A stretch of DNA of 64,000 bases, taken from assembly GCA_041650835.1 (NCBI GenBank), contig JBAZKL010000001.1:765617-829616 (forward strand), given 5' to 3'. Below, in pieces: positions 304-60,999 of this stretch; within the stretch, counting starts at the first letter, position 1; every line of letters begins with the position of its first letter. The notes below the pieces were generated by a model. That model had not been told where the DNA came from. It was given only the letters and a program-made list of their open reading frames with translations, and did no database searches. This DNA comes from Candidatus Omnitrophota bacterium (GTDB lineage Bacteria > Omnitrophota > Gorgyraeia > Gygaellales > Profunditerraquicolaceae). Both the position numbers and the translations under genes were made by a program.

Positions 304-329
304 ATCGCGGAGATCTTTTCTATTCTGTC

Positions 330-9850: not shown

Positions 9851-9899
9851 CATAGCGCTCTAAAGAAGCTATGATCTCGTTACGCTCCCGGTCAGGCAG

Positions 9900-21075: not shown

Positions 21076-21157
21076 GTAATCGGTGAAAAAAGCGATGCCG
21101 GCGCCGCTCCCCGATGGGCATTAAAAAACTGTTCAAAGGGATATACCGGACTTAATT

Positions 21158-29350: not shown

Positions 29351-29399
29351 ACGACGGCTCATATTCTTGAGGCGCCTCTAAGCCAAGCAGATTTAAAAG

Positions 29400-40500: not shown

Positions 40501-41600
40501 AGCAACACCGCGACAGTCCCCGCGGCGATTGCCCGGGAATAAAGGCCGGCATTTAAATAACTGCCTGCCATAAGCAGGATAGCGCGCGCCAGCATATTTT
40601 CCAGCTCAGGGCTTGCGTTAAGATCGGCATGCTCAAGCGTTACGAAAAAGTCTTCCAGGTTATCTTCAGAAACAGCCATTTTCCCCGGCATTAATTGAGT
40701 TAAGGCGAGCATCGCCTGCCGCAGGGCTTTCTGATCGTCCTTCTTTAAATAATATGCTTTCGCTATCTCTAAATATATATTGCCCAGGAGCATGTCGGGC
40801 CCATACGCTGCCTCCCGGTCTTCCTTTAGCTTTACTTCATTGGGTGACGATTGTTTGATCGTTAAGGCTTCTTGTAATAACTCTAATGCCTTATCAATAT
40901 TTTCTTCACTATAACTATAGGTTTCACTCAAAGCGATCAACGCAATTATCCTGTTCAAACCGGAAAGATATTGCAGCGCTCCCCCCATATAAGCACGGAC
41001 CACATCATATTTTCCTAAGCGCAGAGCAGAGCGGCCTCCATGGTATTGCGCTTCAAGCGACGCCGCGGGAGTGAGCGGATGTATCAAAAGCACCCGGCTG
41101 AAGCTGTCCAGCGCCTTATCATCTTTACCGCTGTACTGGTACATATGTCCCCGCAGCAAGAGCGTTTCTACCTGCTTGCTTTTGACGCCCAGGACCTGCG
41201 CGGGAGTAATACCCTTCATATTGAATTCCGCGTTAAGTGACTTGAGCGCGATATCAAGGTTCATCCAGGCCTGAGGCGCTATATCAGAAGCAGTGCTTCG
41301 CGCGATAAGAAACAAGGTATTCGCCAAAAGGCTGCTCACCTGAGCTTTAGAATAATTCTCCGGGGCGATACGTAAAGCTTCTTCATACACTAAACGAGCT
41401 TCATCAAGGCGGGACATATGGGCAAAACACAAGCCTTGATTTGCTAAGACATCCACCAGGAAAACCTTTTCATTTTTCCCTAAAGAAACCTTTTCGCAGA
41501 GCGCTCGTGCTTCATCAAAAACAGCTAATGCTTCAAGGAATTTCCCCTGCGAAAGTAAAAGCCTGCCCTTATCATATACAGCAACGGCATCGGTAATGGC
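39900..41600 (-). CDS. TPR-repeat protein. May overlap the N-terminal region of the PEP-utilising enzyme call.
   Basis: Non-codon-checked read: AVYDKGRLLLSQGKFLEALAVFDEARALCEK...ANQGLCFAHMSRLDEARLVYEEALRIAP..., repeated 34-aa helix-turn-helix pattern. Confidence 0.3.
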
Positions 41601-41649
41601 AACAGGGCTGCCGGACCGCCTGGCACCGCCGCGCCGCTTCTTCACCCGG

Positions 41650-43780
41650 CCCTCAACCAAGGGAAGCTTAAGGGTAAATTCCAGGCCTTTGATCTCCTCA
41701 GTATAACGGTCGACATCCTCCAGTAATGCCAGGACAACCTTATCCAGGAATTCATTACTTACCTCAATACTGCCGCCGAGCAGGCGCATGGCCTTTTCGA
41801 GCCGGTATAAGGTAAGGGAGCCGGTATAGACCCTGTCCGAGAAGAACGGGGCAAAAAGAAGTATCAATTCCTGCGCCTTGAGCCCTTTACCGTCATCACT
41901 GATCTTCGTCTGTATCATCCCCTGCTTTTGGGTCATGGAGATACTTATCTTCTTCGCGCCTGCTTGAGCCGCGTTTTTAAGCAGATGATCGACCATGCGC
42001 ATAAAGTTTTTCGGAAGGATGACCTTCGCAGGCTGAGCGCTCAAACCATAACGGATATTCAACCCGGGAAATTCAGCCATTAAACGCCTGCCTTCGTCGA
42101 TCATATTCTTAATAAAGGTACTCAAGTCCACCTCTACCGGCTCGATGAGATTACCATCAGCCAAAGCCTTGATCAACGCCAGGTTCCGCTGATCCAGCTC
42201 CTCAGCGTTCTTTCGCGTGATCCGGATATCAAGCTGCATCGCCTCACGTAAAGAATCAACGCCGGACTTGATCCGTAAGATGGGAATATTCTTGACTCTC
42301 TGTTCAAGGGTATCAAGCCCCTCAAAGAATTCCTTAGTCAAAGCAAAGATGCGCATTGAGATAGGCAAAAGCACCTCTTCAATATTTTCGGCGAGGAACA
42401 TATTTGTGGTTTTACCGATCTTGATGGTTTCCTCAATAACTACTATCAAGCGCACCAGCCGCGCGGCAATAGATTCGACGACCATGATCCGGAGATATTC
42501 CAAATCGCCTGCGCCCACGCAATCTTCATTTACGCGGATAGCATCCAACTCGGATATTTTCTTTGCAGAATCGATGAGCCTCTGGATACGCGCTATTTCC
42601 ATGATTTCAGGAGAAGCATCCCCCGGAAATTCGTATTCTTTCTGCAGCGCCGCGACGAGCTCAACCTTCCTTCTCCCCAAGAAAAACAAAAGCGCGCGGC
42701 GGAGGTTAACATTTCTTACCGCAGGGATATCCAGGCCTTCTAATTCCTCAACGCTCTTTGCGGCGCGTATGGCCGATAAAAGCTTCATCACGCGTTCATA
42801 GAGGTCCTGTCTGCCGTAAAGCTGCGCCAAAAAGACTTCGTAGCACAACTCAAATACCTGATCGATCTTTTTCTCCAGCCTCCTGATAAAACCTCCCATA
42901 GGCACGACCACATTGCGGAAATGATGCGGGAGCGCATCCGCAACGTGTTTTCTCACCAGGACATCCCTGGTCAACTCCGCTTCCGCGCGCACGAGAGGAT
43001 CGGGATCTTTCAAGAGCACAAGCACCAAAAGCGCGGCGGCCTCAAAATTCACATCACGCAGATCTATCGCGAACTGCTTACGCTCATCGATGCTTCCTCC
43101 CCGGGCAAACGCGATAAGCCGGCGCTTGACGTTTTTCTGCTCAAGATGCGCTGTTAATAAGCATAAACACTGGAATCTCTTAACAGGCGCGGCTTGCGGA
43201 TAATCGTTAGCGCATCTTTCCAAGATCGCCTCAAGCTCGCTCGGCGTTGCTTTTATCGCGACAACCTTGACCTTAATATTGTCGCCGATCTGCGCTGTCG
43301 CCCATTTTCGAAGCTGTTTGTTACCGGCATTCGGACGCGTATTAAAATATATCGAGAACTCAAAATGCCCTGCCTGTGTCGGCTGTATGATGATCTTTAT
43401 CTTAAAAACATTCCCTTCGAGGCCTGCGGGTGAGAGCTCTTCTTCTTTCCTTAGCTTTTGGCCTTCCGAATCCATATACATGCCTACTACTTCGACCTCA
43501 TCATGGGAGACCCTGCTTTTGGCATTCGACCAGACATCAACGATCAAATAGTCTTCGTCCAACAAACTTTCAAATTCTTTCTTGGTTATACAGCGGTCCA
43601 GCTTAACAAAGGCATAGCCGAAAATACGCTGGCCGATGATTATTTCGCCTTCCCGGGCGGTTTGCTGGTCGGCGATCTCGGCTTCCATGCTTATGTGCCC
43701 CGCGGAAAATACCAGCGGTTTTTGCCCATCGCCTAAAACCGGAGAGCTCGCCTCCTGCTGCCAGCTGCGCGATCCCACTA
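41650..43780 (-). CDS. Sensor histidine kinase-like protein with HEAT/ARM repeats and a C-terminal HATPase_c domain. Possible PilZ-like N-terminal segment.
   Basis: Reverse translation of 41931-41996 gives MVDHLLKNAAQAGAKKISISMTQKQGMIQTKISDDGKGL (N/G1 boxes). HEAT-like LLKDPDPLVRAEAELTRDVL. N-terminal GEIIIGQRIFGYAFVKLDR...MDSEGQ. Confidence 0.4.
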
Positions 43781-43789
43781 ACGCGCCCC

Positions 43790-45840
43790 GGCTGAACCCG
43801 CCATAGCGGATCTTCATATACGCTGCCAGGTTATTAGCCACGCCCCATGCCTGGGCATCACAACCGCGGGGCCAATGGGAATAATTCCCGTCAAGTATTT
43901 CCGAGACGCTCCCCACCCCGGCTACCGACAAATGTTCATCGATCTCTGCGAAATAGGGAAGAACGAAACGGATACTCTCCAATGAATATTCATGCGCGGT
44001 GACATACGCCAGAGCCCAATCCCCGAAGAGGTGCGGCCAGGCTGTCCCGTTATGATACGCCGGCTTTCTTTGAGTATCCTCTTCCCCCTCATAATAACCC
44101 CTATAAGGGAATACAGAATGAGAACAGGTATCCTGCGACAAGGTCCGAAGTGCCGCAGGCACGACTAATTTCTCTTTTACTATTTCAACCACGCTCTTTT
44201 GCTGTTTCCGGGAAAGCAGGTTATACTGCGAAAGAACAGCGATAAGCTGGTTCGGACGGATCGCGGCGTCTTTTTTTGCGCTGGAAACCGCCTGATGAGG
44301 ATATGCTTCCAGGGTATCGGCAAGATATCCTTTTTCGGTGAGCCAGAAATATTCTCTAAAACTGTGACGTATCTTTTTGGCGGCAACCATATAATTTTGG
44401 GCTTGAGCGCTTTCTCCTATTTCTTCAAAAAGCTTTGATATGTATAAAACACTCTCATACCAGCGCGCGTTATTCTCAACGGTATAGCCTTCCCGGGGAG
44501 TACAAGCCGGATAATTCGTATCCATCCAGGTAAAATGACTCGGCGACCAGATCAAAAAGGTTTCCTGGTCCATGCGTATCCCGTTGGGAGTGCCATGGCG
44601 ATACCCCTCAATTATTGATGTCATGATCTCAAGGATGATCCGTTTCCCTGCTGTCTCAAAAAGGATAGCTTTATCTCCTGTTGCCTCGATATAACTTCTC
44701 ACGGAGAGGATATACAAAAGCGGAGCATCCACAGTATCATAATTTTGCGCGGTCTCACCGGCAATGATGTTCGGAAGCATTCCTCTATCTTCAAATTTAC
44801 CGAATGCCATCAACAAACCTTTGGCAATATCGTGCATTCCGGCAGCCAGGATCCCGTCGAAACAAATAAAGGTATCCCTGCCCCAATCAGAGAACCAGGG
44901 GTAGCCGGCAAGCACGGTATAGAACTTATCGCGCTTGGCGACGAACGGCCATAACCCCAGCACCATTTTCTGCACAAACGCGTCTTTACGCGCGGCAGGG
45001 TCTTTAACTTTGCGTATTCTTTCCAATTGAAGAAGGCAATTATCCTCGATCATCGCCTGTGCCTGGGCTTCATTAATATCTTTCTCTTCAGTTAAAAGGT
45101 CTTTGCTGGCAAACACAATATTTGTTGATCCTTGTTCGGTAAGGACAGCCGTGAAGAACCCCGGGCTGTAACTATCGCTGGCATTATCCTGGCCCCGCTC
45201 TCCTTCAATGGGATTAAAACCATAATGCCATTCGGGGCTGAATTGATAGCTCCCCGCGGTAGCCCACATCCTTATCCCATCAAACCCCGGATACCAGTTT
45301 TTCCAATCATCGCTGATCGGCCATATTCCAAAGCCTTTTACGCTTTCGCCGTCTTGTATCGGAAAATGCTTGCCCGACCACCAGGAAACTGCGCCATCCC
45401 AATGCTTGGCTGTTTCATGATGCAGGCGCATCTCTAAATCGGGCCTGATGAAAAGATGGACCTGCTTGATACCCGGCGTCATAGCCGCGACATGGTAATT
45501 AAAAAGGAACCTGTTCGCGCCTTCTTCCAGGACGGCAGTTTTAACGATCACAACCTGCTGGCCGCCCTCAATGGTGAGCACAAATGTCCATTGCGGCAAA
45601 GGATACCGCTGGAAGTGCGCGAACGTATTCATATCGAGATGGAAGGCTTTTTCCTGCCCGTCATAGACGAGCGTTACATCTTCGACGATCCCTCTAAAAA
45701 TAACCCTCCGCGACTCATCCGGAGCCGACAGGATTAAATTTGCCTGAAAGCCGTCATACTTGCTGGTATACCCCTGGGTTTCAATGGCCAGCCCCATCTG
45801 ATGGCGCGCCAGAGGCCGGATAGGCAAGCGTAAAATACTT
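43790..45840 (-). CDS. Glycogen debranching enzyme (bacterial/archaeal GDE N-domain plus amylo-alpha-1,6-glucosidase six-hairpin domain).
   Basis: Reverse translation: GYPWFSDWGRDTFI (44874-44909), AYHNGTAWPHLFG, CDAQAWGVANNLAAYMKI (about 43800-43845). The gene begins just below the upstream TAA at 45849-45851. Confidence 0.55.
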
Positions 45841-45848
45841 CCCCGGCC

Positions 45849-48740
45849 GTTAGAGAGAGTGACCGTATTATGCGGGTAGAGATCAAAAACATCTTTCTTT
45901 AACCGCAGCGACAATTCGCCTTCCTCAACAACCTCACTCCATGCTTCCAACACAGGCATGACTTTCAGGTGATACTCCTGCCGCAAACCATTATCCCCTT
46001 CCCATCCGTTATTTTCCCGTTTACCGATCCATAAAAAGCTGACTGAATATCTTCCCGGCTCAAGCATAGAGATCATAGACAGATATTCCGACAAGTCCCT
46101 GACCGGCAATGAATGCGCGTAGGTCTCTTTACCGCTTTTCTCATGGCGCAGGTAGACCACGAACGGATGCGGGTTCCTGAAAGCCAGAGAACATCCGTAA
46201 TGCACTAATACCTCTTTGTTCTTGTTCTCCTCCCAATCCCACTCAACGGTCTGCTTGCGCGCATCCAGGTCACAGACACTGATCTCTGAAAAAGAGGAAG
46301 CATAAACTTGCCTTTGCTGAACAGGAACATCGCTTTCCTTGGCAATAACACGGATACGATACCAATCCGTATACTTCGGATACTCCTCTCCCTCGGCAAA
46401 TACTCCGGCGCGCAATTTATAGTCACCCGGCTCTAATTCATGGATAATGGTAGAAAGAATAGCTGAACGCTTTCCTTCCCCGTTACGGTAAGAAGAAACA
46501 TGCGGTTTATTCAACCCTGAATTTTCTTCCATAATATCGATATTAAAGGTTTCATCCATCGTGAAATAGACTACCTGCCCTTCCTGCACCACGACTTGCG
46601 TTCCACGGAAGCCTTCCCAATCCCATACTATGCCGCCGGCAGGTATCTCGCTTTTTTCCAGGCGCAATACCGCGACCTGTCCGGGGGCCAGGTCAAATTT
46701 CATGCGCGGCTCTTCATAGAGGTATTCAACGCCGCTTATCAGCTCTTTAAAAAGGAAGCGGTGGGCCAGAGGAATACCCATGTACCAATAGGTGATCGGC
46801 ACATCGAGCGTTTTTTGATCATTACTGAAGTTCGCCGCGATTATAAGGCTGTTATTTTGATAATGCTTAACGAAATAAACCAGATGCTCTTCATTATAGG
46901 GGGTAAGATTGATCATATTGGAATTACCGACCGCGGGATTCTCTTCCCTGATCTTAACAAAGCGCTTAACCCATGATGAGAGGTCAACCGGGCCGCATTC
47001 CTTAGTCCCCCAGTCGGAACAGACAGGCCTGCCGGCAGCATCATGCGTTTCTTGTTTTATATTCGCGAATGTACCGAATTCTCCCAGGCTGACCAACGCG
47101 GTCTCTATCCGGGGGCCTAAAAGGAGCATGCCTAAGAACGCGGGGCCTAATAGCTCAATAATGTATTTCTGTAATTCAACGCTGTCTTCCTGAGTAGAGA
47201 TGCCGGCCAAATATTTAAACATCCCCCAATATTCTTTAGACCAGCGATAGCTGTCGTGGGTATCGACAACCGTATAACCAAATTCCCGTGAAATACCGGC
47301 AACATCATTGATAAAATCCCTCAGGAATTTACCTTTTAAATCAAGGACAAATGAATATTGCAGGAACCCCAGGCTGATCAAACTGAAATAGGCGTGAGGG
47401 TCAGCGCCCAACTGTTCAACAATAGGCAGAATATCATTCTCCTGAAAGTATTGCGCGATCCTCTCCCAGAGATTCGTATGATAATGGACCCGGCCTGAAG
47501 TCCCGCAGCCATATTTATGCAGCGCGTCAAGCCGCCAACCCGAGATACGCGCGGCGTTCCCGTGCGTATAGAAAATGTCGGGAAATATGCGCCCCCAGTA
47601 TTCAAACGGCTCAATTCTGGGGTCTTCTTTACCTTTTAAAACCTGTTCGTGAATACTCAATTCATCCCAGGAAGCAAGATCCCCCCACAGCGGGCTTAAG
47701 ATATTTCCTTTTTTACCCTTTTCAAAATAACCTCTATGGAAAGCGGCATCAACGCCGTCCTGGGCCCGATAGAAAGGAAGATCGCCCAAGATCAAAATAC
47801 CCTTTTCCATACAAGTACTTAATAATCCATAAAACTGTTCAAAACTAATAAACTGTTCGTAAAGAATGGAATTCATGGCGCAGTCGCCTTCCTGGCAATG
47901 CCAAAAATCCTCTAAAGGATACGAAATGCCGCTGATCGATTTACCCGGGTATTGCTGATTGCGCTTCAGGACCAACTCCGCGTATTCCCTGGCCTGCTTG
48001 AGCTGCGCGAATTTCATAAAAGCCGTTTTTCTTCTTTCGCTGCCGGAATTCATAAGGTCATAGAGGCGCTCGCTCAAGAACCCGCCCTTATCTTCAACAC
48101 ACTGCCAGTCGATAAAACAGGGATGCAGCGCGTACACGGAAAGCGGCGCGAACGGGCTTTCTCCGGATGTCGGGAAGAACGGAGAAAGCATAAACACATT
48201 TTTACCGGTCTGTTCAAACCTATCCAGGATAAAATCCCTGATCCCGCTCCAATTGACCGCGAAGCCGCGGCAGGCCACATCCGGTAAAAACACATAGGAG
48301 GGATGAAAAGTTTCCGGTTTGATCCAGGTCGGCATCCGGTAAACCTTAAGCGTAACGTTTGAACCGACCCACTTCGCCTCTTTCTGGTGCTTAGTTTGCG
48401 CAAAACCGGTAAATTCAAAATGACCTGGTTTAGAGACCAAAAGTCTCATCCGGGCGCTAAAAACACCGGGGAGCAGGTTGTTCTCTGAGTCGTAAGATTG
48501 AGCTATGCTCTCCGGAGGAAATTCAATGGAATGCCACACTTGAGAATCGGCATTCGTTTGAATGCCCGCGGTCAAATCTTCGATATTTGCGACAGGCGTG
48601 GTAGTAACCGTTACCTCTATTTCGATCGTATTATTGATACCTATGGCGGGCTGGTCCCAGGGAGCAGGGCTTATTTCAACGCGGGTAACAACAGGCAATT
48701 CGGCTGTTACCGCCGAAGAACTAACCATGCGCGGCGGAGC
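45849..48740 (-). CDS. malQ: 4-alpha-glucanotransferase (GH77 amylomaltase, MalQ-like) with an N-terminal beta-sandwich (CBM-like) domain and C-terminal extra domains.
   Basis: Reverse translation: start MLLRAPPRM at 48738-48740. FHPSYVFLPDVACRGFAVNWSGIRDF...MLSPFFPTSGESPFAPLSVYALHPCFID (48111-48190). FYTHGNAARISGW (47538-47573). Stop ...HNTVTL-TAA at 45849-45851. Confidence 0.55.
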
Positions 48741-48845
48741 GCGCAGAAGCATATTTTCAGCGACCAATTCAGCTGTCGCAGGGAAATCTAATTGCGCCAA
48801 CGGCGCTGACGCGATAAACACGGCCGTTGCGGTGATAAGGTCCCC

Positions 48846-48938
48846 ACCAGCCACGCCCCGTTGGAAAATAACAGTTGCTCCCCACCAGCCACGGAAGGTA
48901 AAGCATAACTGTAATAGTGATATTTTCCAACGGGGCAC
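48846..48938. repeat. 93-nt intergenic repeat element with a 16-bp inverted repeat (copy 1).
   Basis: Exact or near-exact match to 52703-52795. Stem cgccccgttggaaaata ... tattttccaacggggc encloses a loop of about 50 nt. Lies between the SAS-domain gene end and the GH77 start. Confidence 0.7.
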
Positions 48939-48959
48939 GGAAGGTAAACCAAATCGCTT

Positions 48960-51900
48960 GAACCGCAACGGCCGCGATGATTCCTTACTGATACTTGAAC
49001 TGCTTTGCTGCGGCACCGAAGATGCAAGAACCGCATTCAAAGGGCCTTGTTTTTCTTGAGGGATATTTTTCGAAAATATTCTCTGACTCACCGGCGATTT
49101 ATCAGGATTTAGTATTTTAACCCCCGTCCCGGTATCGATTTCCGCCAAGAATATATCCCCGGTTTCGGCCTTCCCTTGAGCAGAGAGGGAAAACAGCCGA
49201 GACGACCTTAAAGCAAAGCTCTGCCCATAAGCAGGGACCACTTTCTTCATGTTCGCGCCGAACAGAACAAATAAACTCCTGACATTCCCCGGTTTATTCT
49301 CAAGTGAGGGGAAAGTCAATTCCAAAGCGCCGGGATACTTACGCGAGCGGTTGACCACCATACAATAGGCGTTATTACCTATTCGCTCGATGATCTCGCC
49401 ATATTGCTCCATGGGGATGCTTTGCCAGGAAGATATCAGGTTATATTTTTGCGGCGGCATGCGCAATAAAACTTCACCGCGCCTCAAGCCCTGCATATGC
49501 CCGGCCACAATTTCAATATCGGCCACATTGTTCTTCGCGTAATGTTTTCCGGCGCTTTCGCGGCTTAATTTATAGACCCAATGCGGACGGTCGAAATTTT
49601 GTTTTGCTTCCCAATCTTCTTTTGAGAAGATCTGGACCTCAGCCGGCACGCCTTCAATATTTATAAATACAACATACTCATTCCACTGGGCCCTGATGCC
49701 GGCGAATTCTTTATTATGATGCTTATATTCGGGATTTTCTTCATTCAGCTCCTGCAAGGGGTAATTATTTAATAAATAGCTCAGGATATGATAGACATCG
49801 TGCTTCGTCCTGCTGACAATAGTGATCCCGAAAACATCCTTTAATCTCCTTAAGTCTTTATTATATTCTTTCTTGGTCATTGCCTTTTTCCAGCAGGTAT
49901 AAGCGTCTTTTACGCGGGAAAACATTGCGTCGGCATAAACGCCGCTTTGAGCTAACCGGTAACGCATTTCAACTGATCTTTCCAACAGATAATCCTGGGC
50001 TTGACCAAAATCCCTGCCTCCCCTGATCTCCCTGACTTCATTAACAACATCAGCATAAATTTCAGTATAAGAAAAAACGACTTCCCTGAATTGCCGGTCT
50101 AATCCTTCGAGCCTTAAGAATTCAGCTAAGGGGGCGTAAATACAATACACTTCATTCGCCCAGGATATCCGCTCCTCGACTGTTTCCAGGTGCCTGCCGG
50201 AAGCGAGTTTATCCGCCAGGACTAAGACTATTCCATGAACACCTGACAGCATTAAGATCATGCAGATATATTTTTCCAGGGCATCATCGCCTTTTACGAC
50301 CCGTAAAGCAGGCAAAGAATTAAAACGCTGCATCAAGAGGACATAATCCTTGATCGTTTTATCGCTCATGAATCTCTTCTTTAATGACTGGCTTAAGGAA
50401 GGGGCTTCTCTTGTGGGATTAATATGCGTCAAGAGCGCGAAAAGCGCTTGAGGCTTAAATGAAACACGGTCTATGAATTCAACATAGATCTCCAGAACAT
50501 CCAGGATATGGGTAAGCACGCCTAACCCGGCTTCAAAATAGGCTGACGCGTAACGAGGCACGCTGATAAGACAATAAACCTCAATTGCCGCTTCGATATC
50601 AGCGGCTGATAAATGCGAATAAGGGATCTTAGAACGCAGATTGATCAGTGAGGCAAAAAACCGGAAGGCAGATCTATCTTGTTCCGCTAAAGGCACTGCC
50701 AGCGCGCCTGAAAGCGATTTATTCTCTATCTCCAAAAATAACAGGATCAGGCGGCTGGTAAGGCTTGCTGATTGTTTTTGTTTACCCAGGTCAAAATAAG
50801 CGGGATGGATAATAATGGTCTTTGAAATAACATCTAAAGCGATACATTTTCCCCCGGTTGATACAAGAGAGGTTGTGATCTCTAATGCCCACACGGGAGG
50901 CGCGCGCAACGAAAGAGGAGCGAACTTATCCAGGCTATCCTTAATAACCTGGTAATGTTTTTCAGAATAGAAACCGGCAGAAAGGCCGATATCAAAACCT
51001 TTCAATTGCCTTTTCAGTAAAATCCTATTCTTCCCGTAAACAGCTTCGGCTTTTGCTTGCGCCTTTTCCGAGACCTTAAGAGGGCTGCCCGAGCCCGGGG
51101 CATTTGCCGCGACTTTATTCCTGCCGCTTTCTTTAGCTTCATAAAGGGCGATATCCGCCCGTTCAATAACATCCTTATGACTGTCATCAATTCTTTGAGG
51201 ATCAAACTCACTTACCCCGATACTGACGCTCACGCTGATCTCCAAGCCATTATTCTTAAACACATATGCTTCTATCATCTGCCGGATCTTTTCCGCCTTC
51301 AGGGCGGCATTCGTTAATTTACATGACAAAGCCAGGCAGAACTCTTCCCCGCCGTAGCGGAACAGCGAATCATTGGTACGGATCGAGTCCTGGATCAAGC
51401 GGGAAACCTCTGCCAGGACAACATCACCCATCGTATGGCCATAGGTATCATTGACTCTCTTAAAGAAATCTATATCAAGCATCAGGATAGAAAGTTCATC
51501 TTTGCCTCTTCTGACGCGGGCGGTCCATTTCGGCAGCTCTTCTTCAAGGTACCTGCGGTTATACGCGCCGGTTAAAGGGTCCCGTATCGCTGATTCCCGC
51601 GCCGCTGCCTTCTCTATCAACGCTTTACCTAACTGCTGCCTTAAATGCCGGCCCATCCAAAGAGAATTAAGGTATTCACTCACCAGGAAGTAGGGAACTA
51701 AACCGACGACAAGAAGATACAAGAAGCCATGCGCCGGGCCGTACGGCAAAGAAATGATCATCGTGAATGCTTCCAGCGCCAGGACATAGATATAGCCGCC
51801 CAAAGTATAAGACAGGAAACTTCCTATCCTGTCGATTACGGCCGCAAGCCAATGCGTAGCCTTATCCGTTAAAGATACCCTGCGTAAGGCCGCGGAAACG

Positions 51901-52300
51901 ATCTTATTGTTTATTTTGTGCAGGATCAATTGGGGCGCCAGGAATGCGATCATAACCCGATACAAGAGGTATTCCTGAGAAGCAGCGATGACCGCCGGAT
52001 GGAGGACAATATTTTGAGCGGCATCCAGGAAACAAACGCTGCCTTCATCAACCGCCTTTCCTTCATTATAAGCCGCGATTTCCTTCTCCAAACTGCGTAC
52101 GGCATATGCTTGCATGGATATAATTGCCGCGAGCAGGAGAGCCGTTACAAAAACAAACGGCAAATTAACAAACTCGAACTTATAGAAGCTGCATAAGGCG
52201 CCCAAACCAACGCAGGCGCATGACCACAACCAAGCATACCGCTTTATCTTGCCTGAAGTAATTATCGCGGAGGGAATTGATCCTCCCTGATCTTCAAGCG
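48960..52300 (-). CDS. Membrane-anchored GGDEF diguanylate cyclase followed, in the same apparent ORF, by a degenerate HD-like region and a RelA/SpoT-type (p)ppGpp synthetase (SAS) domain. May be two adjacent genes.
   Basis: Reverse translation: N-terminal hydrophobic helices; DPLTGAYNRRYLEEEL...MLDIDFFKRVNDTYGHTMGDVVL...RYGGEEF (51344-51364) ...ADIALYEAKESGRNKV; later FGITIVSRTKHDVYHILSYLL and PAEVQIFSKEDWEAKQNFDRPHWVYK (49566-49640; vEvQIRT...HW.YK synthetase signature). Confidence 0.45.
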
Positions 52301-52335
52301 GGCTGCCGGCTAAGACGGGAAGGACCTGATTATTG

Positions 52336-52599
52336 TTACCCGTTAAGAGACTCTCCCTCAAAATATATGGGAACATCTTTAAGCTGCCCCTGAAGAGCTC
52401 CCCTGACCTGCTCGGCGCATTCATAGGTAAGTTCATGCCAACCCCCCGGAGACTTTCCCCACGCGTACCCCAAAGGCGAGAGGATGAATTCAAAGACTGT
52501 TTGGCCGTCGGGAACGCAGGAATAGACGACCACATCGCGGGAAGATAAAACCCTAAGCTGTAAGACCTGTAACTGACTGAATTGATATTGACTAAGCAT
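52336..52599 (-). CDS. Small hypothetical protein (87 aa) with a canonical RBS.
   Basis: AAGGAGGT, 6 nt, then ATG. This ORF is listed in the supplied track (MLSQYQFSQLQVLQLRVLSSRDVVVYSCVPDGQTVFEFILSPLGYAWGKSPGGWHELTYECAEQVRGALQGQLKDVPIYFEGESLNG). Stop TAA at 52333-52335. Confidence 0.6.
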   Translation of the reverse strand: MLSQYQFSQLQVLQLRVLSSRDVVVYSCVPDGQTVFEFILSPLGYAWGKSPGGWHELTYECAEQVRGALQGQLKDVPIYFEGESLNG

Positions 52600-52702
52600 C
52601 CGTTACCTCCTTGATTAATATTATGGGCTGCGGAGTAAAGGCCCCCCATTCCTCGACCTGGCTCGGAATCCCTCAAAGAGGAACCCTGAGCTCGTCGAAG
52701 GG

Positions 52703-52795
52703 CCAGCCACGCCCCGTTGGAAAATAACAGTTGCTCCCCACCAGCCACGGAAGGTAAAGCATAACTGTAATAGTGATATTTTCCAACGGGGCACG
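52703..52795. repeat. 93-nt intergenic repeat element with a 16-bp inverted repeat (copy 2).
   Basis: Matches 48846-48938. Lies between the end of GT-B gene A and the start of the small ORF, in an AT-rich spacer at 52600-52900. Confidence 0.7.
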
Positions 52796-52910
52796 CAAGA
52801 GGTAAGCCCGAAACGTCACTCCGCAACCCATCTATATTTGTAAACGTTTTCATTTGAGTGTAAAAAAATACTTCATCGATCCTATTTTTTGAAGCGATAG
52901 CCGACGAGGA

Positions 52911-55052
52911 TACAAAGACGCGGTAATCAGGATTGCTCCAGACATAGATATCCAGTTCGTTATTGACCGATTTCATTCCCCGCGCGTACGAGCGTACCGT
53001 AAACCCTAACTCACCGCGCGGTAATTCCATACGCTTGCTCACCTTGATAATATTCCCCGCCGCCTGCTCCCCATCCATGCGCTCCGCCTGCCACGGTTTA
53101 CCGTCGTATGCGCCGTACCATACTTCCGCTTCCACATCCGTTGCGCTTAATCCCGCCTTGCATACCACCTGCGCCTTCACCTCGTACTCATTGCCCCCGA
53201 CGTGCTCCACCGTAACATTCTTCACCGCGGCTATCTTCGCGTGCTTTCTCACGAATTCAAACACCCGCCCGTAATCCAACGCCATTCGTTTACTCGTCAC
53301 CTTCTGATGCGCGATCGCGTACGCCTCGCTCATCATCCCCACCCACCGCTGGTCACGATGCTCCACGTACCCGTAATATAACTGGCTGGCTTCTTTCAAA
53401 TACTCACCCAACAACTGCTGCGCCCGGCTCCTGAACAACTCCACGATCTGCTTCTTCTCCTCATACCACTCAGGCAACTGCATCAACCGCACCTTATCCT
53501 CAAACGAATGGTGCGTCCCTTTGAACACGTTCATCAGCCACCCATTCATCCCGTGCATGATGTATTCCAAAGCCCCGCCCGTTGCCGTCGAGATGACCAA
53601 ATGCCCGTTCAAACCAGCCTTCTGGTCAGCCACACTGCAGCCCTCCATCGTCGACCACGGAACCACAACCCACACGTCGCTTGCCTGCACCGCATGCCTC
53701 ATCACTTCCGTCCCCAACCGTTCCACAAACACAAATCTACCCCGAAGGTCTTCTCTACCCATCAGTTCCTTCAACTTACCCACCCAGCACTTCCCTATCT
53801 CATCACGCGCGATTCCCCCCATCAGCACGTTCATCCCCAGCCCAAACTTCTTGCCCTGCGCTGTATCATATTCCTTGTCCCTGTCCCCGCACACCCACTC
53901 TATTATCTCAAATAAGATCCGCTGCTCCTGGTATGAGATCACCCGGCTCACCATCCCCACCAACGGACGGCTGATCTCACTAAAACTCACTCCCGCCGTC
54001 TTCTTCAAATACGCCTGCAGGTCTTCTTTCGCTTCCTGCCCTGCTTTAAAGATCGATTCCCCGCACACCCGCTGCTGCACCCCCCTGGCTTTTGCTTCCA
54101 GCTCCAATAACCGCTTATTTTTCCATTCCATTTCATCTGAGCCGTTCAAAATGCTCACTATCTTATACTTATGGTCCCCTAAAATGATCATCCTGATCAC
54201 TTCTTTGTTCTCCTCAGACACCGCGGTCACCACGACCGCCCGTTCTGCCAGCCGCCTCATGAGCGACACTTTTCCGTCCTTGATGATCCAATCCGGCACC
54301 ATATCCGCACCGATCTTCTCCTTTAACCATCCGATATCGTGGTACGTCGGCAGTAACGAAAGATCCGGCATGTGCACCGTCAACACTACCGCCAGATCCT
54401 CATAGATACTCTTCTCTCCGCGGCCGCTGAAATATTTCACGTCGTTCCTACGCGCTACTTCCACGAACAATAACTGCGCGTCGTTCAATCTCACCACGTC
54501 AGGTGACACTCCCAGCGCTTTGAACAATTCCACAAATACCCTCCCCATGAACGCCAGCTGGATCGCGCGCTCCGGCTCCTCAGGATACAACTCATTGAAG
54601 ATCTCAGGCTGGCACGCTAATATCACCGGTGTGCCGCTGCGTTCCACTACATAAAAACTCACCACGTATTTCCTCTTATTGAACCTTACTTCTATCCGCA
54701 GCTGTTCTTCTGTTTCCCCGTTCTTCACCCATAACGGCTCTAACTCACTCTCCGTATCCCAATGCACCCGCAGCAGGTTCCCGTTGTCACGGTAGTACGC
54801 GTATAACGGCATTAACCCCACCGCGGCAACTTGCGCCTGCGCGTACCCGCTCCAGTTGTCTACCGCCAAATATCCCAGTTTACCCATACCCATCCCCTGC
54901 TGGATACGCTCATCTTCTATCTCCTTCAAATACCCTTCCAAACTTATATCTGCTACGAATTCTCCCCGCCCTATCATCCACCTTAAATTGTCGTCCGCTA
55001 CTTCTTCCCATCTGCTTAATGGCGATCCGCTTAATAATGAAACCGTTTTCAT
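52911..55052 (-). CDS. Alpha-glucan phosphorylase / glycogen synthase-like GT-B glycosyltransferase (copy A) with a C-terminal CBM-like beta-sandwich.
   Basis: Reverse translation: start MKTVSLLSGSPLSRWEEV at 55050-55052. N-terminal GMGMGKLGYLAVDNWSGYAQAQVAAVGLMPLY (the K-GGLG/sGGLGiLAGD region of GT5/GT35). C-terminal SDVWVVVPWSTMEGCSVADQKAGLNGHLVISTATGGALEYIMHGMNGWLMN (GT-B C-terminal Lys/TGG motif). Then VKAQVVCKAGLSATDVEAEVWYGAYDGKPWQAE (CBM-like). Confidence 0.5.
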
Positions 55053-55099
55053 TCCGCTGTAAAAATTTTTCTCCAAAGGCGAAGCGCAAACTCTTGTTT

Positions 55100-56300
55100 G
55101 CTGGGGCTGCCTGATCGATGCCTGTTCCGGGATAATAAGGCTGCCGTAGGCAATAGCGTCATATTCTTTTAATAAGACCGACGGTGATCTCCCTGCCAGT
55201 AAAATATTTATTTTTTCGTCATACGCGCCTTTTTTATCTAATTCCGCCTTGGTGACAATATCAACAATAATGATCAGCTTATGGTCGCAATTGATCCGGA
55301 AGAATATACGCCAATTATTTGAATCGATACGCGCGTGGTACAGGCCGAAAGAACTATTATCGATCTTTAAAGAGCTCTTCGACCTTTTAGTCCCCAGCTG
55401 CTTTTTAAGCTGTTCGCCTAAGTCATTAAGCAACTGTTCTTGCTTCCACTGCGCGTTACTGCCGTTATTCCTCTTAACGAGGTAAACCTGAAAAGTATTT
55501 TCCGCCGCAGCGAGATCCTCAAGCTTACCCCACGCCTGGAAAACCACCTTAAATATATCGGGTTCAAAGCCGGCGAAACGCTCAACGATGGCGTCTGTAA
55601 TATGTTTTTCAAGAGGATCCAGCCACAGGTGTTGAGCCAGGAGCCTTGCCAGGCGCGTTAAAGGTAATTCTCCGCAAACTGCCGAGAGAAGTTCAACCAT
55701 GTTCTCCTGGTTAGCCATGATATAGGCCAACGCGATCGGCTCCGTCAAATTCGCGGCATAAGCTTTTGCTTGTTTCTTCGAAACGGCTGCCACGGGTTTT
55801 TCCCGCGCAGCTTCCCGGCACACAGCAACTTTCGGCGTTTGAGCAACGCACACATCGGCGGCAGCTTCAGACAAAACCTGAGCCACCGCGGGTAACAAGG
55901 CTTTCTGAGGGGCAGGATTATTAAGAGCATCAAGCTGCCGCTGGTCCCTTTCCATATCGCCATTGATAACAAAGACGTTGCCTTGCAACTGCCTTATCCC
56001 CGCCGTCATGATCTTTTCTTCCGACTGCGCTTGCCGGATATCCTTCATAAGTGAGTCGCGCTGCTTCACCAGATTCTTCCAAAGGCGGTCTTTTATCCTT
56101 ACTTCTTTCTGTTCCGCGGTAGGCCAAAAGAAGCGCAGGGCCTTTTCCCAAACGGATTGCTTTTCAGAATAAACGCGTATCTTTTCCCTTAGATCAGCCG
56201 TCTTTGAACGGATCCTGTCAGCTTCACCGGATTTCGTCCTATGTTCTGCCTTTAAAGAAATAACGTTCGCGCGGAGATCTTCCAATTCTTTATTCCTCAT
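55100..56300 (-). CDS. Coiled-coil-rich segment between GT-B copies B and A. A separate small gene or genes, or the C-terminal tail of B.
   Basis: Non-codon-checked reverse translation is rich in heptad-like E/K/R/L runs (...ELEDLRANVISLKAEHRTKSGEADRIRSKTADLREKIRVYSEKQ...). Confidence 0.2.
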
Positions 56301-58628
56301 GACCAAAACTTCCTCGATCTCATCTCTTTCTTTCTCGAGTTCCCCTATCCGGGTGAGCAGGGCATCTTCATTCACCGCAGATGACGCTCTTTTTGCCTGC
56401 CCGCGCCCATCTTTGACCGGCGACGACGCATGGCAAACACGGTAATCCTGTCCGAATTGCTGGCTCCAGGTATATATCTCCAGGTCAGGATCAACTTCTT
56501 CCATACCCCTGGCATAGGCCCGCGCGGAAAATCCGCAATCACCGGGAAGCAGCTTTACTTTAGTCGTACCGTTTATAGTCCCGAACTCAGTCGCTGCCAG
56601 CTCCATGTTCACCGCGTTCCACGCGGAACCGTCGTATCTTCCGTAATATATCTGCATCACCACTTCATCCACCCCCAGGTCGGCGCCTAAGACTTCCGCG
56701 GAGACTTCATACTCATTTTCCTGCAGGAGTTTAACATCAAGGTTCCTGATATAAGCGATACGCGCTTCGCGCCTGACGTATTCGAACATCCGTTCGTAAT
56801 CCCTGACCATGCGTTCAATGGATACTTTTTGATGAGAGATCACATACGAATCCTTCATCATGCGCAGCCAGCGTTCATCCTGGTTTTCCGTATAGTTATA
56901 ATATAACCGGGAGGCTTCCTGTAAATATTCTCCCAATAAACGCTGCGCGCGGGAGCGGTACAATTCGACGACCGCCTTCTTTTCCGGGTATTTATCCGGC
57001 AACTGCATCAACTGCACGACTTCTTTGAACGAATAGCCTGTTCCCGCGAACACATCCATGAGCCAGCCGTTAATACCATGAATAATGTATTCCAACGGGC
57101 CGCCGGTAGCGGTAGCGATATTAGGCTTACCATTGAACGCGGGCCGGTGATCCGAGGTACCGCAGGCTTCCCGGGTGGAACGCGGCATGCTCACCCAGAC
57201 ATCGCTTGCCTGCGTTGCCCGCTTCATGATCTCATAGCCTGAACCTTCAATAAAAACGAACTTACCGAGAAGTGACTCCTCCTGCATTAATTTCTTGAAT
57301 ATATCGATCATCTCCACGCCGAACTCATCCTGTCCGACACCGCCTACCAGCACATTCATCGCCAACCCCGGGAACTCTCCCCACGGGATAGAATATATTT
57401 TATCCCTGTCTCCGCAGATCCAATTCAGTATTTCATACAATATCCTTTGCTCTTTGTACGCGACGAGCCTGCGGACCAATCCCACGAGCGGCCGGGAAAT
57501 ATCGCTAAAACCATGCCCGGCTATTGCTTTAAGGAACTCATTTAATATTCCTTTATTCTCCTGGCCGATAGTAAAGAGGTCCAGGCCGCTCACCTCTTCT
57601 CCTTTGACGAGAAGCTCTGCTTCTAATTCCTGCAATTTCCTGCTTTTCCATAATTTCGGGTCAGAACCGTTCAATATACCGGTAATTTTCTTGCTGAATT
57701 CAGGCAAAATAACCAGCTTCGTCACTTCCTTATGTTCGTTTGCCACGGCGTTAATGATGGTTGAGCGTTCAGCGATACGCCGAGCCATATCCACCCGTTC
57801 ATCGCGCACGATCCACGCGGGGACCATATCTTCACCGATATGATATTTCAACCACCAGATATTATCGTACGTCGGCAGTGCGGCTGCTTCAGGAGTATGT
57901 GTCGTCAGTACCACTCTGGTGCGGTTATGAGGGCTCTGTAACCCTTTGTTCCTGAACAATTCTATTTCATTGCTGCGCGCGACCTCCAGGAAAAGTAATT
58001 GCGGTTCATTCAGCCGCAGAATATCAGGCATAACCCCTAAGACGCGGAACAATTCAACATACACTTTTCCCATAAAAGCATATTGCTTGACGCGCTCCTG
58101 AGCGTCTTTCGGATACAAGGCCGCGAATATCTGCGGCTGATACGCCAAGAGCACCGGTGTCCCGTCACGCTCCATCATATAAAAAGTCACCGGATAACTC
58201 CTGGAGTTTAATTTCGGCTCTATCATAAGCTGTTCCAGCTTATCGCCCCTGCGTATCATGACGGGCTTAATAATATCGGATTCTTCTTTCCAGTTGATCC
58301 AGAAACGGTTCTCCACCTCCTCAATTTCAATGATATCCTCGCCCTTATCATTCTTCTTTACGACCTGCTTTTTTTCCATTACTTTAAAATTAGCATATAA
58401 CGGCATCAACCCCATAACATCCATACCTACCTGGCCGTAACCGCCGAATGTTTCCCCTGCCAAAAAGCCCAACCCGCCAGAAGCTAACGCGTTCTGCCAT
58501 TGCTGGTTCTTGACCTCGGGTAAAAAGGCTTCCAGGGATACGTCCGCGACAAACTGGCTCTTGGTTACGATCTCCCTTAAGCGGTCATGCGCGATATTCT
58601 GAGCGAGAATAGCGCTCGATGAACGCAT
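56300..58628 (-). CDS. Alpha-glucan phosphorylase-like GT-B glycosyltransferase (copy B), a diverged paralog of A and C.
   Basis: Reverse translation: start MRSSSAILAQNIAHDRLREIVTKSQFVADVSLEAFLPEVKNQQWQNALASGGLGFLAGETFGGYGQVGMDVMGLMPLYANFKV (the aSGGLGfLAGE signature of the alpha-glucan phosphorylase family). C-terminal CBM-like AYARGMEEVDPDLEIYTWSQQFGQDYRV at about 56400. Confidence 0.5.
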
Positions 58629-58673
58629 TGCGACCAGCGCGCCTGTTATTCTATCGGCGATAGCCGACGAGGA

Positions 58674-60815
58674 TACAAAGACGCGGTAATCAGGATTGCT
58701 CCAGACATAGATATCCAGTTCGTTATTGACCGATTTCATTCCCCGCGCGTACGAGCGTACCGTAAACCCTAACTCACCGCGCGGTAATTCCATACGCTTG
58801 CTCACCTTGATAATATTCCCCGCCGCCTGCTCCCCATCCATGCGCTCCGCCTGCCACGGTTTACCGTCGTATGCGCCGTACCATACTTCCGCTTCCACAT
58901 CCGTTGCGCTTAATCCCGCCTTGCATACCACCTGCGCCTTCACCTCGTACTCATTGCCCCCGACGTGCTCCACCGTAACATTCTTCACCGCGGCTATCTT
59001 CGCGTGCTTTCTCACGAATTCAAACACCCGCCCGTAATCCAACGCCATTCGTTTACTCGTCACCTTCTGATGCGCGATCGCGTACGCCTCGCTCATCATC
59101 CCCACCCACCGCTGGTCACGATGCTCCACGTACCCGTAATATAACTGGCTGGCTTCTTTCAAATACTCACCCAACAACTGCTGCGCCCGGCTCCTGAACA
59201 ACTCCACGATCTGCTTCTTCTCCTCATACCACTCAGGCAACTGCATCAACCGCACCTTATCCTCAAACGAATGGTGCGTCCCTTTGAACACGTTCATCAG
59301 CCACCCATTCATCCCGTGCATGATGTATTCCAAAGCCCCGCCCGTTGCCGTCGAGATGACCAAATGCCCGTTCAAACCAGCCTTCTGGTCAGCCACACTG
59401 CAGCCCTCCATCGTCGACCACGGAACCACAACCCACACGTCGCTTGCCTGCACCGCATGCCTCATCACTTCCGTCCCCAACCGTTCCACAAACACAAATC
59501 TACCCCGAAGGTCTTCTCTACCCATCAGTTCCTTCAACTTACCCACCCAGCACTTCCCTATCTCATCACGCGCGATTCCCCCCATCAGCACGTTCATCCC
59601 CAGCCCAAACTTCTTGCCCTGCGCTGTATCATATTCCTTGTCCCTGTCCCCGCACACCCACTCTATTATCTCAAATAAGATCCGCTGCTCCTGGTATGAG
59701 ATCACCCGGCTCACCATCCCCACCAACGGACGGCTGATCTCACTAAAACTCACTCCCGCCGTCTTCTTCAAATACGCCTGCAGGTCTTCTTTCGCTTCCT
59801 GCCCTGCTTTAAAGATCGATTCCCCGCACACCCGCTGCTGCACCCCCCTGGCTTTTGCTTCCAGCTCCAATAACCGCTTATTTTTCCATTCCATTTCATC
59901 TGAGCCGTTCAAAATGCTCACTATCTTATACTTATGGTCCCCTAAAATGATCATCCTGATCACTTCTTTGTTCTCCTCAGACACCGCGGTCACCACGACC
60001 GCCCGTTCTGCCAGCCGCCTCATGAGCGACACTTTTCCGTCCTTGATGATCCAATCCGGCACCATATCCGCACCGATCTTCTCCTTTAACCATCCGATAT
60101 CGTGGTACGTCGGCAGTAACGAAAGATCCGGCATGTGCACCGTCAACACTACCGCCAGATCCTCATAGATACTCTTCTCTCCGCGGCCGCTGAAATATTT
60201 CACGTCGTTCCTACGCGCTACTTCCACGAACAATAACTGCGCGTCGTTCAATCTCACCACGTCAGGTGACACTCCCAGCGCTTTGAACAATTCCACAAAT
60301 ACCCTCCCCATGAACGCCAGCTGGATCGCGCGCTCCGGCTCCTCAGGATACAACTCATTGAAGATCTCAGGCTGGCACGCTAATATCACCGGTGTGCCGC
60401 TGCGTTCCACTACATAAAAACTCACCACGTATTTCCTCTTATTGAACCTTACTTCTATCCGCAGCTGTTCTTCTGTTTCCCCGTTCTTCACCCATAACGG
60501 CTCTAACTCACTCTCCGTATCCCAATGCACCCGCAGCAGGTTCCCGTTGTCACGGTAGTACGCGTATAACGGCATTAACCCCACCGCGGCAACTTGCGCC
60601 TGCGCGTACCCGCTCCAGTTGTCTACCGCCAAATATCCCAGTTTACCCATACCCATCCCCTGCTGGATACGCTCATCTTCTATCTCCTTCAAATACCCTT
60701 CCAAACTTATATCTGCTACGAATTCTCCCCGCCCTATCATCCACCTTAAATTGTCGTCCGCTACTTCTTCCCATCTGCTTAATGGCGATCCGCTTAATAA
60801 TGAAACCGTTTTCAT
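58674..60815 (-). CDS. Alpha-glucan phosphorylase / glycogen synthase-like GT-B glycosyltransferase (copy C), identical to copy A.
   Basis: 58654-60853 is an exact direct repeat of 52891-55090. The identical plus-strand shadow ORFs at 53521/59284, 52963/58726 and 54856/60619 confirm this. Confidence 0.5.
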
Positions 60816-60999
60816 TCCGCTGTAAAAATTTTTCTCCAAAGGCGAAGCGCTTAATATATTTTCAATATAAACGGCGGCTTCTTCAGTTGCCTGGCGGACG
60901 GACAAAACATCCATATCGACGACATAGGCGCCGGTTAAATCAGGCTTCTGATAAACGCTCAAGCTATTATGATCTTCGATATATTGCGGTTTGACCCCT

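Follow-up and report, generated by a model that had tools for sequence, protein, structure and literature searches.

The closest described systems to the locus presented here are the giant genes of the Omnitrophota. West-Roberts et al. 2023 (10.1101/2023.11.21.568195) reported 'Archaeovorin'-type open reading frames (ORFs) of up to 85,804 aa, which carry GT5, GT1, TPR, HATPase_c, HAD, methyltransferase and GGDEF domains together with many transmembrane helices, and which have pilZ genes downstream. Nielsen & Lui 2026 (10.64898/2026.06.07.730766) described a 'multi-enzyme metabolic' class with ORFs of up to 147,155 aa and distinguished a "signal/regulatory" module (methyltransferase, HATPase_c, GNAT, HAD, HD) from a "sugar metabolism" module (starch synthase, GT1, others). 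The published work is based on Pfam catalogues; both papers suspect proteolytic processing, and C39 and S8 peptidases have been proposed as possible processors (10.1101/2023.11.21.568195; 10.64898/2026.06.07.730766). The window analysed here, a stretch of 64,000 nucleotides from a Candidatus Omnitrophota bacterium (assembly GCA_041650835.1, contig JBAZKL010000001.1, forward-strand positions 765,617 to 829,616), carries, to judge by its sequence, a further giant gene of this kind, and the nearest loci are 74-82% identical to it. Within this gene, positions 48720-52307 probably hold two adjacent, gene-sized cassettes, a diguanylate cyclase and a RelA-like synthetase, which would exert local control through second messengers.

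A sequence-only reading of this DNA had proposed that a membrane-anchored GGDEF domain is linked or fused here to a RelA/SpoT-type synthetase, as a single protein or operon that couples the synthesis of cyclic di-GMP (c-di-GMP) and of guanosine tetra- and pentaphosphate ((p)ppGpp) directly upstream of glycogen enzymes. Retranslation confirms that no stop codon lies between the two domains, and the minus-strand translation of 48900-52400 is a single stop-free frame; but the same holds for the entire window, whose minus-strand frame is open at both ends.

3..63998, minus strand: giant gene of 21,332 codons that holds all features listed below (stop count, Pfam, orthologous frames)

A six-frame count found 0 stops in the 21,332 codons of this frame, whereas the other five frames contain 709-1591 stops each, i.e. 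one every 13-30 codons. A frame of this kind cannot have arisen by chance. Pfam scans of the whole frame returned about 25 unrelated enzyme domains. From the N- to the C-terminus these are HATPase_c, three GT5/GT1 glycogen-synthase-like modules, GGDEF, RelA_SpoT, GH77 and GDE_N/GDE_C, followed by HATPase_c, TPR, PEP-utilizers_C, cofactor-independent phosphoglycerate mutase (iPGM), HD_4 and YcaO, and finally by a CoaE-like P-loop, YkuD, HAD, NusG, HD_4/HD, a further HD and an S-adenosylmethionine (SAM) methyltransferase.

In a search of one genome per GTDB species, two related loci were found. The first, L001 (CAZPNW010000112.1), is the closest relative (82% identity) and lies on a 9.7-kb contig of a metagenome-assembled genome (MAG) labelled uncultured Planctomycetales; the second, L002 (74% identity), lies on a 543-kb contig of a "Candidatus Omnitrophota bacterium" MAG. 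The matching frame of L002 is stop-free across all 21.8 kb, and that of L001 has a single stop at nt ~9566, about 110 nt from the contig end. Since all other relatives are Omnitrophota, the Planctomycetales label and the terminal stop may reflect mis-binning or a contig-end error. Codon-level comparison with these orthologs gives a ratio of nonsynonymous to synonymous substitution rates (dN/dS) of 0.07-0.27 in every part of the region, at dS 0.5-1.4. This purifying selection, taken together with the stop-free orthologous frames, indicates that the frame is translated and constrained and is not an artefact.

Among 1.84 billion representative proteins, searched exhaustively, there is no close relative; the top match reaches 33% identity and is a partial protein of 5805 aa. 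This protein and two further large matches that we looked up are partial proteins of Candidatus Omnitrophota MAGs; the window itself has no marker gene. The 658-aa RelA/SpoT homologue (RSH) cassette had no match at E <= 1e-3 in a collection of 5.8 billion proteins, and an 1100-aa query that spans the transmembrane (TM), GGDEF and RSH regions matched ordinary GGDEF proteins only, over ~15% of its length. Neither of these two protein searches found the giant ORF itself, and an alignment of the three orthologs found no relatives among metagenome contigs. Given that two GTDB MAG contigs encode proteins of 74-82% identity, orthologous giant ORFs are apparently missing from predicted-protein sets.

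The giant frame is subdivided by a short recurrent motif, [A/G/S]-S-P-[L/I/V/M], usually with a further small residue before it, which we call the junction motif. The ORF contains 30 copies, as compared to 2.9 +/- 1.6 in shuffled sequences (maximum 8), and all 30 lie between Pfam domains, often 9-60 residues off a domain edge. Their Ser codons differ from copy to copy (TCT, TCG, AGC), which makes the motif a protein-level signal and rules out a signal at the level of DNA. A broader form, [AGST][AGS]S[PA][LIVM], occurs 42 times (2.2 expected) at a gene-sized median spacing of 406 residues; sites at 51078-51089, 52296-52307, ~43740 and ~41600 are examples. Enrichment of the junction motif extends to L001, L002 and the giant-protein fragments P0132, P0125 and P0129; it was not seen in P0121, P0123, P0158 and P0232, nor in canonical RSHs. 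Locally, the order runs from AGSPL at aa 3898 through cassette 1 to GSGSPL at aa 4304, and through cassette 2 to VSSSAV at aa 5094, from where GH77 and the following modules continue. The conserved junction between cassettes 1 and 2 suggests that they behave as separate units. Junction motifs also stand at both ends of a 2.2-kb duplication in the window and of an insertion in L002, so that cassettes evidently move as units.

Cassette 1 comprises the following features.

51090..52307, minus strand: cassette 1 (aa 3898-4303), made up of the junction AGSPL, a membrane anchor and GGDEF, and delimited by the flanking junctions at aa 3898 and 4304
51669..52238, minus strand: six hydrophobic 19-residue peaks in three hairpins, aa 3921-4110 (Kyte-Doolittle hydropathy)
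51114..51590, minus strand: GGDEF domain (PF00990), aa 4137-4295 (Pfam)
51078..51089, minus strand: junction G-S-P-L, aa 4304-4307, nine residues past GGDEF, the border of cassettes 1 and 2 (motif count)

The GGDEF domain covers the full Pfam profile (1-161/161, E 1e-41, 142.8 bits against a cut-off of 23.8) and has 40-50% identity to diguanylate cyclases of the ordinary bacterial type. Its RYGGEEF motif is intact (aa 4214-4220, 51339-51359), with the GGEEF active site at 51339-51353. An RxxD I-site is typical of GGDEF cyclases, though not obligatory; here RTND at 51369-51380 lies five residues upstream of GGEEF (RTND-SLFRY-GGEEF), which is the expected spacing. L001 and L002 have both motifs unchanged, and dN/dS is 0.14-0.16 in the GGDEF domain and 0.24-0.27 in the TM region. 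In the hydropathy profile (window 19), from which alone the topology is predicted, the outer loops measure 3-7 residues and basic residues are concentrated in long inner loops. The even number of hydrophobic segments implies that both flanks may face the cytoplasm, and the shortness of the outer loops predicts that there is no periplasmic sensor domain. Cassette 1 would thus consist of three TM hairpins and a GGDEF domain that makes c-di-GMP from GTP at the cytoplasmic face and is subject to product inhibition via RxxD.

With its 790 aa, cassette 2 is roughly as large as a long RSH protein.

48720..51089, minus strand: cassette 2 (aa 4304-5093, 790 aa), with domain X, pseudo-HD, SYN and an unassigned conserved tail, ending at VSSSAV (junctions, alignments)
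50718..51083, minus strand: domain X, aa 4306-4427, a degenerate copy (hidden Markov model (HMM) of X)
50019..50591, minus strand: degenerate RSH hydrolase (pseudo-HD), aa 4470-4660 (alignment to Rel/RelA, AlphaFold2 (AF2), Foldseek)
49566..49919, minus strand: RelA_SpoT synthetase (SYN, PF04607), aa 4694-4811 (Pfam)
48720..49523, minus strand: post-SYN tail, aa 4826-5093 (conserved in orthologs)

The pseudo-HD region reaches only 13 bits with Pfam HD_4, and aligns to the hydrolase domain of E. coli RelA and of Rel enzymes. LSGVHG stands in place of LLHD, so that the HD dyad reads H-G, whereas ADKLASGRHL and IYAPLAEF are kept. The replacement of the dyad Asp by Gly marks a pseudo-hydrolase, as in RelA. 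The SYN domain starts about 400 residues after the GGDEF domain and exceeds the Pfam cut-off of 27 bits with each query used (34.4 bits, E 3e-8, with 1666 aa; 37.1 bits, E 4e-9, with 460 aa; 33.0 bits with 5000 aa). In a phmmer search against PDB, aa 4580-4820 matched residues 138-367 of E. coli RelA (E 3e-9), as well as RelSeq and the Rel proteins of T. thermophilus, B. subtilis and S. aureus, and canonical RSHs of ~700 aa align to query residues 180-518, i.e. to the whole HD and SYN region. The AF2 model of the RSH half has a predicted local distance difference test score (pLDDT) above 85 over residues 1-345. Foldseek matches it to structures of the Rel N-terminal domain with probability 1.0 and E 2e-11 over ~340-360 columns (7oiw, 24io, 6s2t, 1vj7, 5iqr), with structures of small alarmone synthetases (SASs) ranking below these (E 2e-5 to 4e-4).

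A column-by-column comparison with 67 canonical long RSHs shows that SYN keeps R4695, K4697, K4705, D4721, K4763, E4787 and Q4789, which correspond to E. coli RelA R252, K254, K262, D275, K315, E335 and Q337, together with the His, Trp, Tyr and Lys of HWVYK; the ATP-binding and catalytic residues are kept alike in the window, L001 and L002. The dN/dS of SYN (0.07) is the lowest of the region, and that of the pseudo-HD is 0.10. RSH modules of other giant-protein fragments share the signature HWxYKL, and the window's module belongs with them to a divergent RSH clade found mostly in giant-protein fragments. The post-SYN tail (~270 residues) has a dN/dS of 0.09-0.12, an AF2 pLDDT below 50, no Pfam match and no recognisable family. 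Homology of the tail to TGS was considered and rejected (hhalign against 64 canonical RSH C-terminal regions, probability 0.6%). Nor did Pfam and hhalign detect the TGS, helical, zinc-finger/CC or ACT/RRM domains that form the regulatory half of long RSHs. From its domain content, cassette 2 reads as the catalytic half of a long RSH, pseudo-HD plus SYN, devoid of a detectable ribosome-sensing C-terminal half.

At the level of single domains the sequence-only reading therefore fares well: the GGDEF and RelA_SpoT domains both score above the curated thresholds, the six hydrophobic peaks agree with its membrane anchor (by hydropathy only), and the degenerate HD-like stretch that it saw between the two corresponds to the pseudo-HD. 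Its SAS signature needs revision. EVQIFS (49623-49640) and HWVYK (49569-49583) are present as stated, but the domain they belong to is the catalytic half of a long RSH and not a SAS.

Cassette 2 would then be a monofunctional pyrophosphokinase, in which a dead hydrolase precedes a synthetase that moves pyrophosphate from ATP to a nucleotide acceptor. Its product would be an alarmone, most simply (p)ppGpp by default. Since the ribosome-sensing half is lacking, any control of cassette 2 would come from its tethered context and not from ribosomes. Two other modules of the same ORF, which resemble small alarmone hydrolases, could remove this product.

25950..26321, minus strand: stand-alone HD_4 module, aa 12560-12683, with LHDSLEE and ADRIQN intact (Pfam, motifs)
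7518..7949, minus strand: second stand-alone HD_4 module, aa 18684-18827, with LHDTIED and ADRIHN intact (Pfam, motifs)

These modules are paralogous (33% identity over ~370 aa), and a search for a cryptic SYN domain after either of them found none. On the strength of their intact motifs they could be alarmone hydrolases.

The setting of the two cassettes may point to a role in glycogen metabolism. As the sequence-only reading had it, glycogen enzymes follow in the same frame, and a glycogen-synthase-like module also precedes the pair.

52880..55103, minus strand: glycogen-synthase-like cassette (GT5 + GT1), directly N-terminal of cassette 1 (Pfam, repeat comparison)
47706..48227, minus strand: GH77 4-alpha-glucanotransferase, start of the module after the RSH cassette, ~aa 5258-5431 (Pfam)
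43833..45716, minus strand: glycogen debranching enzyme, GDE_N + GDE_C, aa 6095-6722 (Pfam, GDE_C E 6.5e-82)

The order GGDEF, RSH, GH77 is kept in L002 and, as far as its contig reaches, in L001. Alpha-glucan enzymes flank the pair both here (GT5/GT1 glycogen synthases) and in L002 (an alpha-amylase/GlgE-type module); the upstream modules of L002 are of this type and not GT5, and Pfam found no GDE there. In E. coli, ppGpp stimulates glycogen synthesis genes. In Streptomyces, the debranching enzyme GlgX is a direct target of c-di-GMP, which binds and regulates it (PMC9530166). As both cassettes stand amid alpha-glucan enzymes here and in the Omnitrophota ortholog, their likeliest role would be local second-messenger control of a membrane-tethered set of glycogen and alpha-glucan enzymes.

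Several observations weigh against this interpretation of two active cassettes under a common local purpose. Three residues that are conserved in at least 90% of the 67 canonical RSHs differ in SYN: the Arg of D-x4-R (RelA R280) is replaced by T4726; the G-loop Tyr (RelA Y319), which stacks on the acceptor base, is absent, with Ile or Gln in its place depending on the alignment; and RelA H323 corresponds to Y4775 in the window and in L001, while L002 keeps the His. These altered acceptor residues may mean that the product is not (p)ppGpp, or that the domain is inactive. The fold match of the RSH half is not independent of the sequence match, as the alignment used by AF2 consisted of RSH proteins. 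The membrane topology comes from crude hydropathy only, and for giant proteins of this sort the DeepTMHMM and TMHMM predictions in print conflict as to the side that the enzyme domains face (10.1101/2023.11.21.568195; 10.64898/2026.06.07.730766). The pair itself was seen in only three related genomes (the window, L001 and L002), and a GGDEF domain is absent from all 150 of the RSH cassette's closest relatives (0/150). In L002 an extra module of ~270 aa (aa 3108-3330, locus nt ~9325-9990, between GSSSSAI and PSSSPI junctions) is interposed between GGDEF and the RSH cassette. The lack of GGDEF in other RSH-bearing giant fragments implies that the pairing may be a historical accident of cassette order. 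As to the identity of the L002 module, a GNAT assignment made by eye (RRYSGLGHEL) was dropped, as Pfam gave no match at E <= 1e-3.

Among the alternatives, we consider one in which the cassettes are cut apart to be plausible, if short of probable. The giant product would be a polyprotein cleaved at [small]-S-P-[LIVM], the cyclase and the RelA-like enzyme would be separate proteins linked by co-translation and stoichiometry, and the protease would be the HELISH family of domain X. This domain (~120 aa) begins at junction motifs, and an HMM finds 33 copies of it across the window, its orthologs L001 and L002, and giant-protein fragments of Omnitrophota, one of which, 5805 aa long, has as many as five; P0121, P0122, P0123 and P0131 are among the carriers. 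The copies in the orthologs span aa 1437-1556 of L001 and aa 3337-3456 of L002, and the window holds one besides that of cassette 2.

3165..3560, minus strand: second domain X copy, aa 20147-20278 (HMM of X)

Relatives of domain X start with (T)YPLxVPxEA, and most have a conserved YHELISH. No Pfam family matches the domain. Its AF2 model (pLDDT 86-97 for residues 10-125) suggests a zincin-like fold, and its Foldseek matches are not significant. The recurrence of this zincin-like domain at junctions, together with the junction motif itself, makes proteolytic processing a serious possibility. In favour of cleavage, the motif is far above expectation in both its strict and its broader form, acts at the protein level, always lies between domains at gene-sized spacing, and bounds both the 2.2-kb duplication and the L002 insertion; P0132 combines 19 junction motifs with one intact (HELISH) domain X, and both papers on giant genes suspect processing. 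Conversely, YHELISH has been lost from both window copies and from those of L001 and L002, so that no active protease is seen here; its HExxxH spacing differs from the canonical HExxH; and the junction motif could be a mere flexible linker, with cleavage and protease activity both hypothetical. SecA_DEAD, C39 and S8 peptidase had no Pfam match within these 21,332 residues, which form an internal window, and may lie beyond it.

It is unlikely, in our estimation, that the RelA_SpoT-like domain is a pseudoenzyme with a structural or nucleotide-binding role, so that c-di-GMP alone would be made. Besides the loss of the R280-equivalent Arg (to Thr) and of the G-loop Tyr, SYN shows a change of Gly to Phe4802 and of IRT to IFS, and its neighbours, the HD domain and domain X, are both degenerate already. 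Against decay stand the ATP/Mg-binding residues and the catalytic Glu and Gln, invariant across the three orthologs, and the strongest constraint of the region. In the RSH modules of other giant-protein fragments the same Arg is often missing while the Tyr is mostly kept; the common loss of the D-x4-R Arg in this clade argues for a clade-specific variant rather than for decay. For the coupled synthesis of two messengers that had been proposed, this leaves the c-di-GMP half with an intact GGEEF active site and the (p)ppGpp half with non-canonical acceptor residues.

Less likely still is a synthetase that is active on a non-guanine acceptor, such as adenine nucleotides, the 3' end of tRNA or another phosphorylated metabolite, in the manner of some toxic RSH enzymes. 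The donor site is intact while acceptor-loop residues are replaced, and the module belongs to the divergent HWxYKL clade, all of which would suit a different acceptor. However, no resemblance of its sequence to any characterised toxSAS enzyme came to light, it matches housekeeping RelA and Rel best, and to our knowledge the characterised tRNA-modifying RSHs keep the acceptor-stacking Tyr that is lost here.

Very improbable, and refuted as stated, is the idea that one dedicated bifunctional enzyme, or an operon of two genes, serves to couple the making of c-di-GMP with that of (p)ppGpp. It could draw on two domains above their Pfam thresholds in one stop-free frame, in an order kept in three genomes; and a stop codon with a ribosome-binding site that would separate the domains was looked for and not found. 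Yet that frame spans the whole 64 kb, and the domains sit in cassettes that follow one another within an ORF no shorter than 21,332 codons, which amounts to neither a discrete protein nor an operon. No Shine-Dalgarno sequence with a start signal was found between the GGDEF and RSH domains or flanking either of them, the stretch from aa 4241 to 4544 contains no ATG, and sites between the domains that resemble promoters or terminators do not exceed chance level. A junction motif separates the two domains, and in L002 the extra module does so as well. This module and the 0/150 count also speak against adjacency as an obligatory coupling. Elsewhere, RSH modules of giant fragments adjoin HAD, AIR-synthase-like, Fic, methyltransferase or GNAT modules. 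The L002 insert, the missing GGDEF among relatives, these differing neighbours and the mobility of cassettes together identify the pairing as a conserved neighbourhood within one lineage and not a dedicated fusion. A literature search, which was not exhaustive, found no described GGDEF-RSH fusion. The dedicated GGDEF-RelA fusion enzyme is an over-reading of cassette adjacency in a polyprotein-like gene.

An origin of the stop-free frame in faulty assembly, or in an array of decaying pseudogenes, as the near-identical 2.2-kb repeat and the absence of the exact sequence from the protein databases searched might hint, is scarcely credible in view of independent MAG assemblies with orthologous stop-free frames, dN/dS values of 0.07-0.27 at dS 0.5-1.4, and zero stops in 21,332 codons, which is beyond chance.

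The repeat just mentioned is a direct one (52880-55103 / 58643-60866; 2224 bp, 20 mismatches, offset 5763 bp), and each copy comprises exactly one GT5/GT1 glycogen-synthase cassette in full, from junction to junction. A third GT5/GT1 paralogue with 50% identity (aa 1997-2495) lies between the two copies. The repeat goes back to a recent duplication or conversion event, unless the assembly is at fault. Plus-strand GC skew is negative throughout 52001-62000 (~-0.1 to -0.17); in the glycogen-synthase repeat region it falls to -0.18 to -0.36, and GC content rises to 0.50-0.52. Elsewhere in the giant frame, ~17000-35000 holds domains of a housekeeping type (iPGM, PEP-utilizers_C, YcaO, CoaE-like P-loop, YkuD L,D-transpeptidase, HAD and NusG), of which NusG is an odd component of a multi-enzyme ORF. 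Pfam leaves one internal paralogous pair unassigned, at aa 14001-14270 and 19326-19600 (~21190-21998 and ~5200-6020; 31% identity over 283 aa).

The present locus offers some handles on how the products of Omnitrophota giant genes, of up to ~147,000 codons, may undergo translation, folding, sorting and perhaps cleavage. The junction motif marks cassette borders and is searchable as neo-N-termini in proteomics, and the recurrent HELISH zincin-like domain that starts at junctions is a candidate processing enzyme. A second-messenger toolkit of diguanylate cyclase, RelA-like synthetase and HD_4 hydrolases appears among glycogen enzymes. For alarmone biology, an HWxYKL clade of RSHs with an altered acceptor loop and no ribosome-sensing half has a product worth determining. 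RelA_SpoT/RSH cassettes, (p)ppGpp or alarmones, a junction motif and a HELISH domain are unmentioned in the searchable text of the two papers on giant genes, the supplementary tables lying outside it. To go by that text, the RelA-like cassette and the alteration of its acceptor loop, like the intact HD_4 modules, the junction motif and the HELISH domain, appear to be undescribed, and we regard them as leads, not conclusions. We speculate, while holding the full picture to be rather unlikely, that the gene encodes a self-organising polyprotein, whose [small]-S/Y-P-[L/I/V/M] junctions are recognised by undescribed small HELISH zincin-like proteases within Omnitrophota giant proteins, and which by processing or by tethering gives rise to a membrane-bound alpha-glucan metabolon. 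This would possess its own diguanylate cyclase, dedicated HD_4 hydrolases and a RelA-like pyrophosphokinase that works independently of ribosomes and whose acceptor site is non-canonical; two nucleotide messengers, made and destroyed in cis, would then govern the turnover of glycogen in an episymbiotic bacterium of ultra-small size.

Set against known systems, cassette 1 shares with membrane-anchored GGDEF cyclases that have an I-site (PleD-type catalytic domain) the full-length domain, GGEEF and RxxD; it differs in having no recognisable sensor domain, with extracytoplasmic loops predicted at 3-7 residues, and in being embedded in a giant ORF. Cassette 2 has in common with E. coli RelA, Rel and SpoT the succession of hydrolase fold and synthetase, the ATP-binding Arg and Lys, the Mg-binding Asp, the Glu and Gln, and HWxYK, and with E. 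coli RelA also a dead hydrolase site. Unlike long RSHs, it has the acceptor-loop Tyr and the D-x4-R Arg replaced, carries a zincin-like domain in front and forms part of a giant ORF. The synthetase fold is shared with small alarmone synthetases (RelQ/RelP, SAS1/SAS2), but these are enzymes of ~200 aa without an HD domain, whereas here a full pseudo-HD precedes SYN and long RSHs score far better.

For domain X the nearest fold candidates are the minigluzincins selecase and jannalysin, M48 HtpX/BepA, and SprT/Wss1. Zincin metallopeptidases have HExxH, in contrast to the HExxxH of domain X relatives with HELISH, a motif absent from the window copies; viral polyproteins provide the working analogy for processing by junction and domain X. 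With regard to the giant genes of Omnitrophota, the published criterion is >30,000 aa, to be compared with at least 21,332 codons from an internal window. The locus shares with them a stop-free ORF of tens of kb, several TM segments, the repertoire of GT5, GT1, HATPase_c, TPR, HAD, methyltransferase, HD and GGDEF domains, and relatives among Omnitrophota MAGs.

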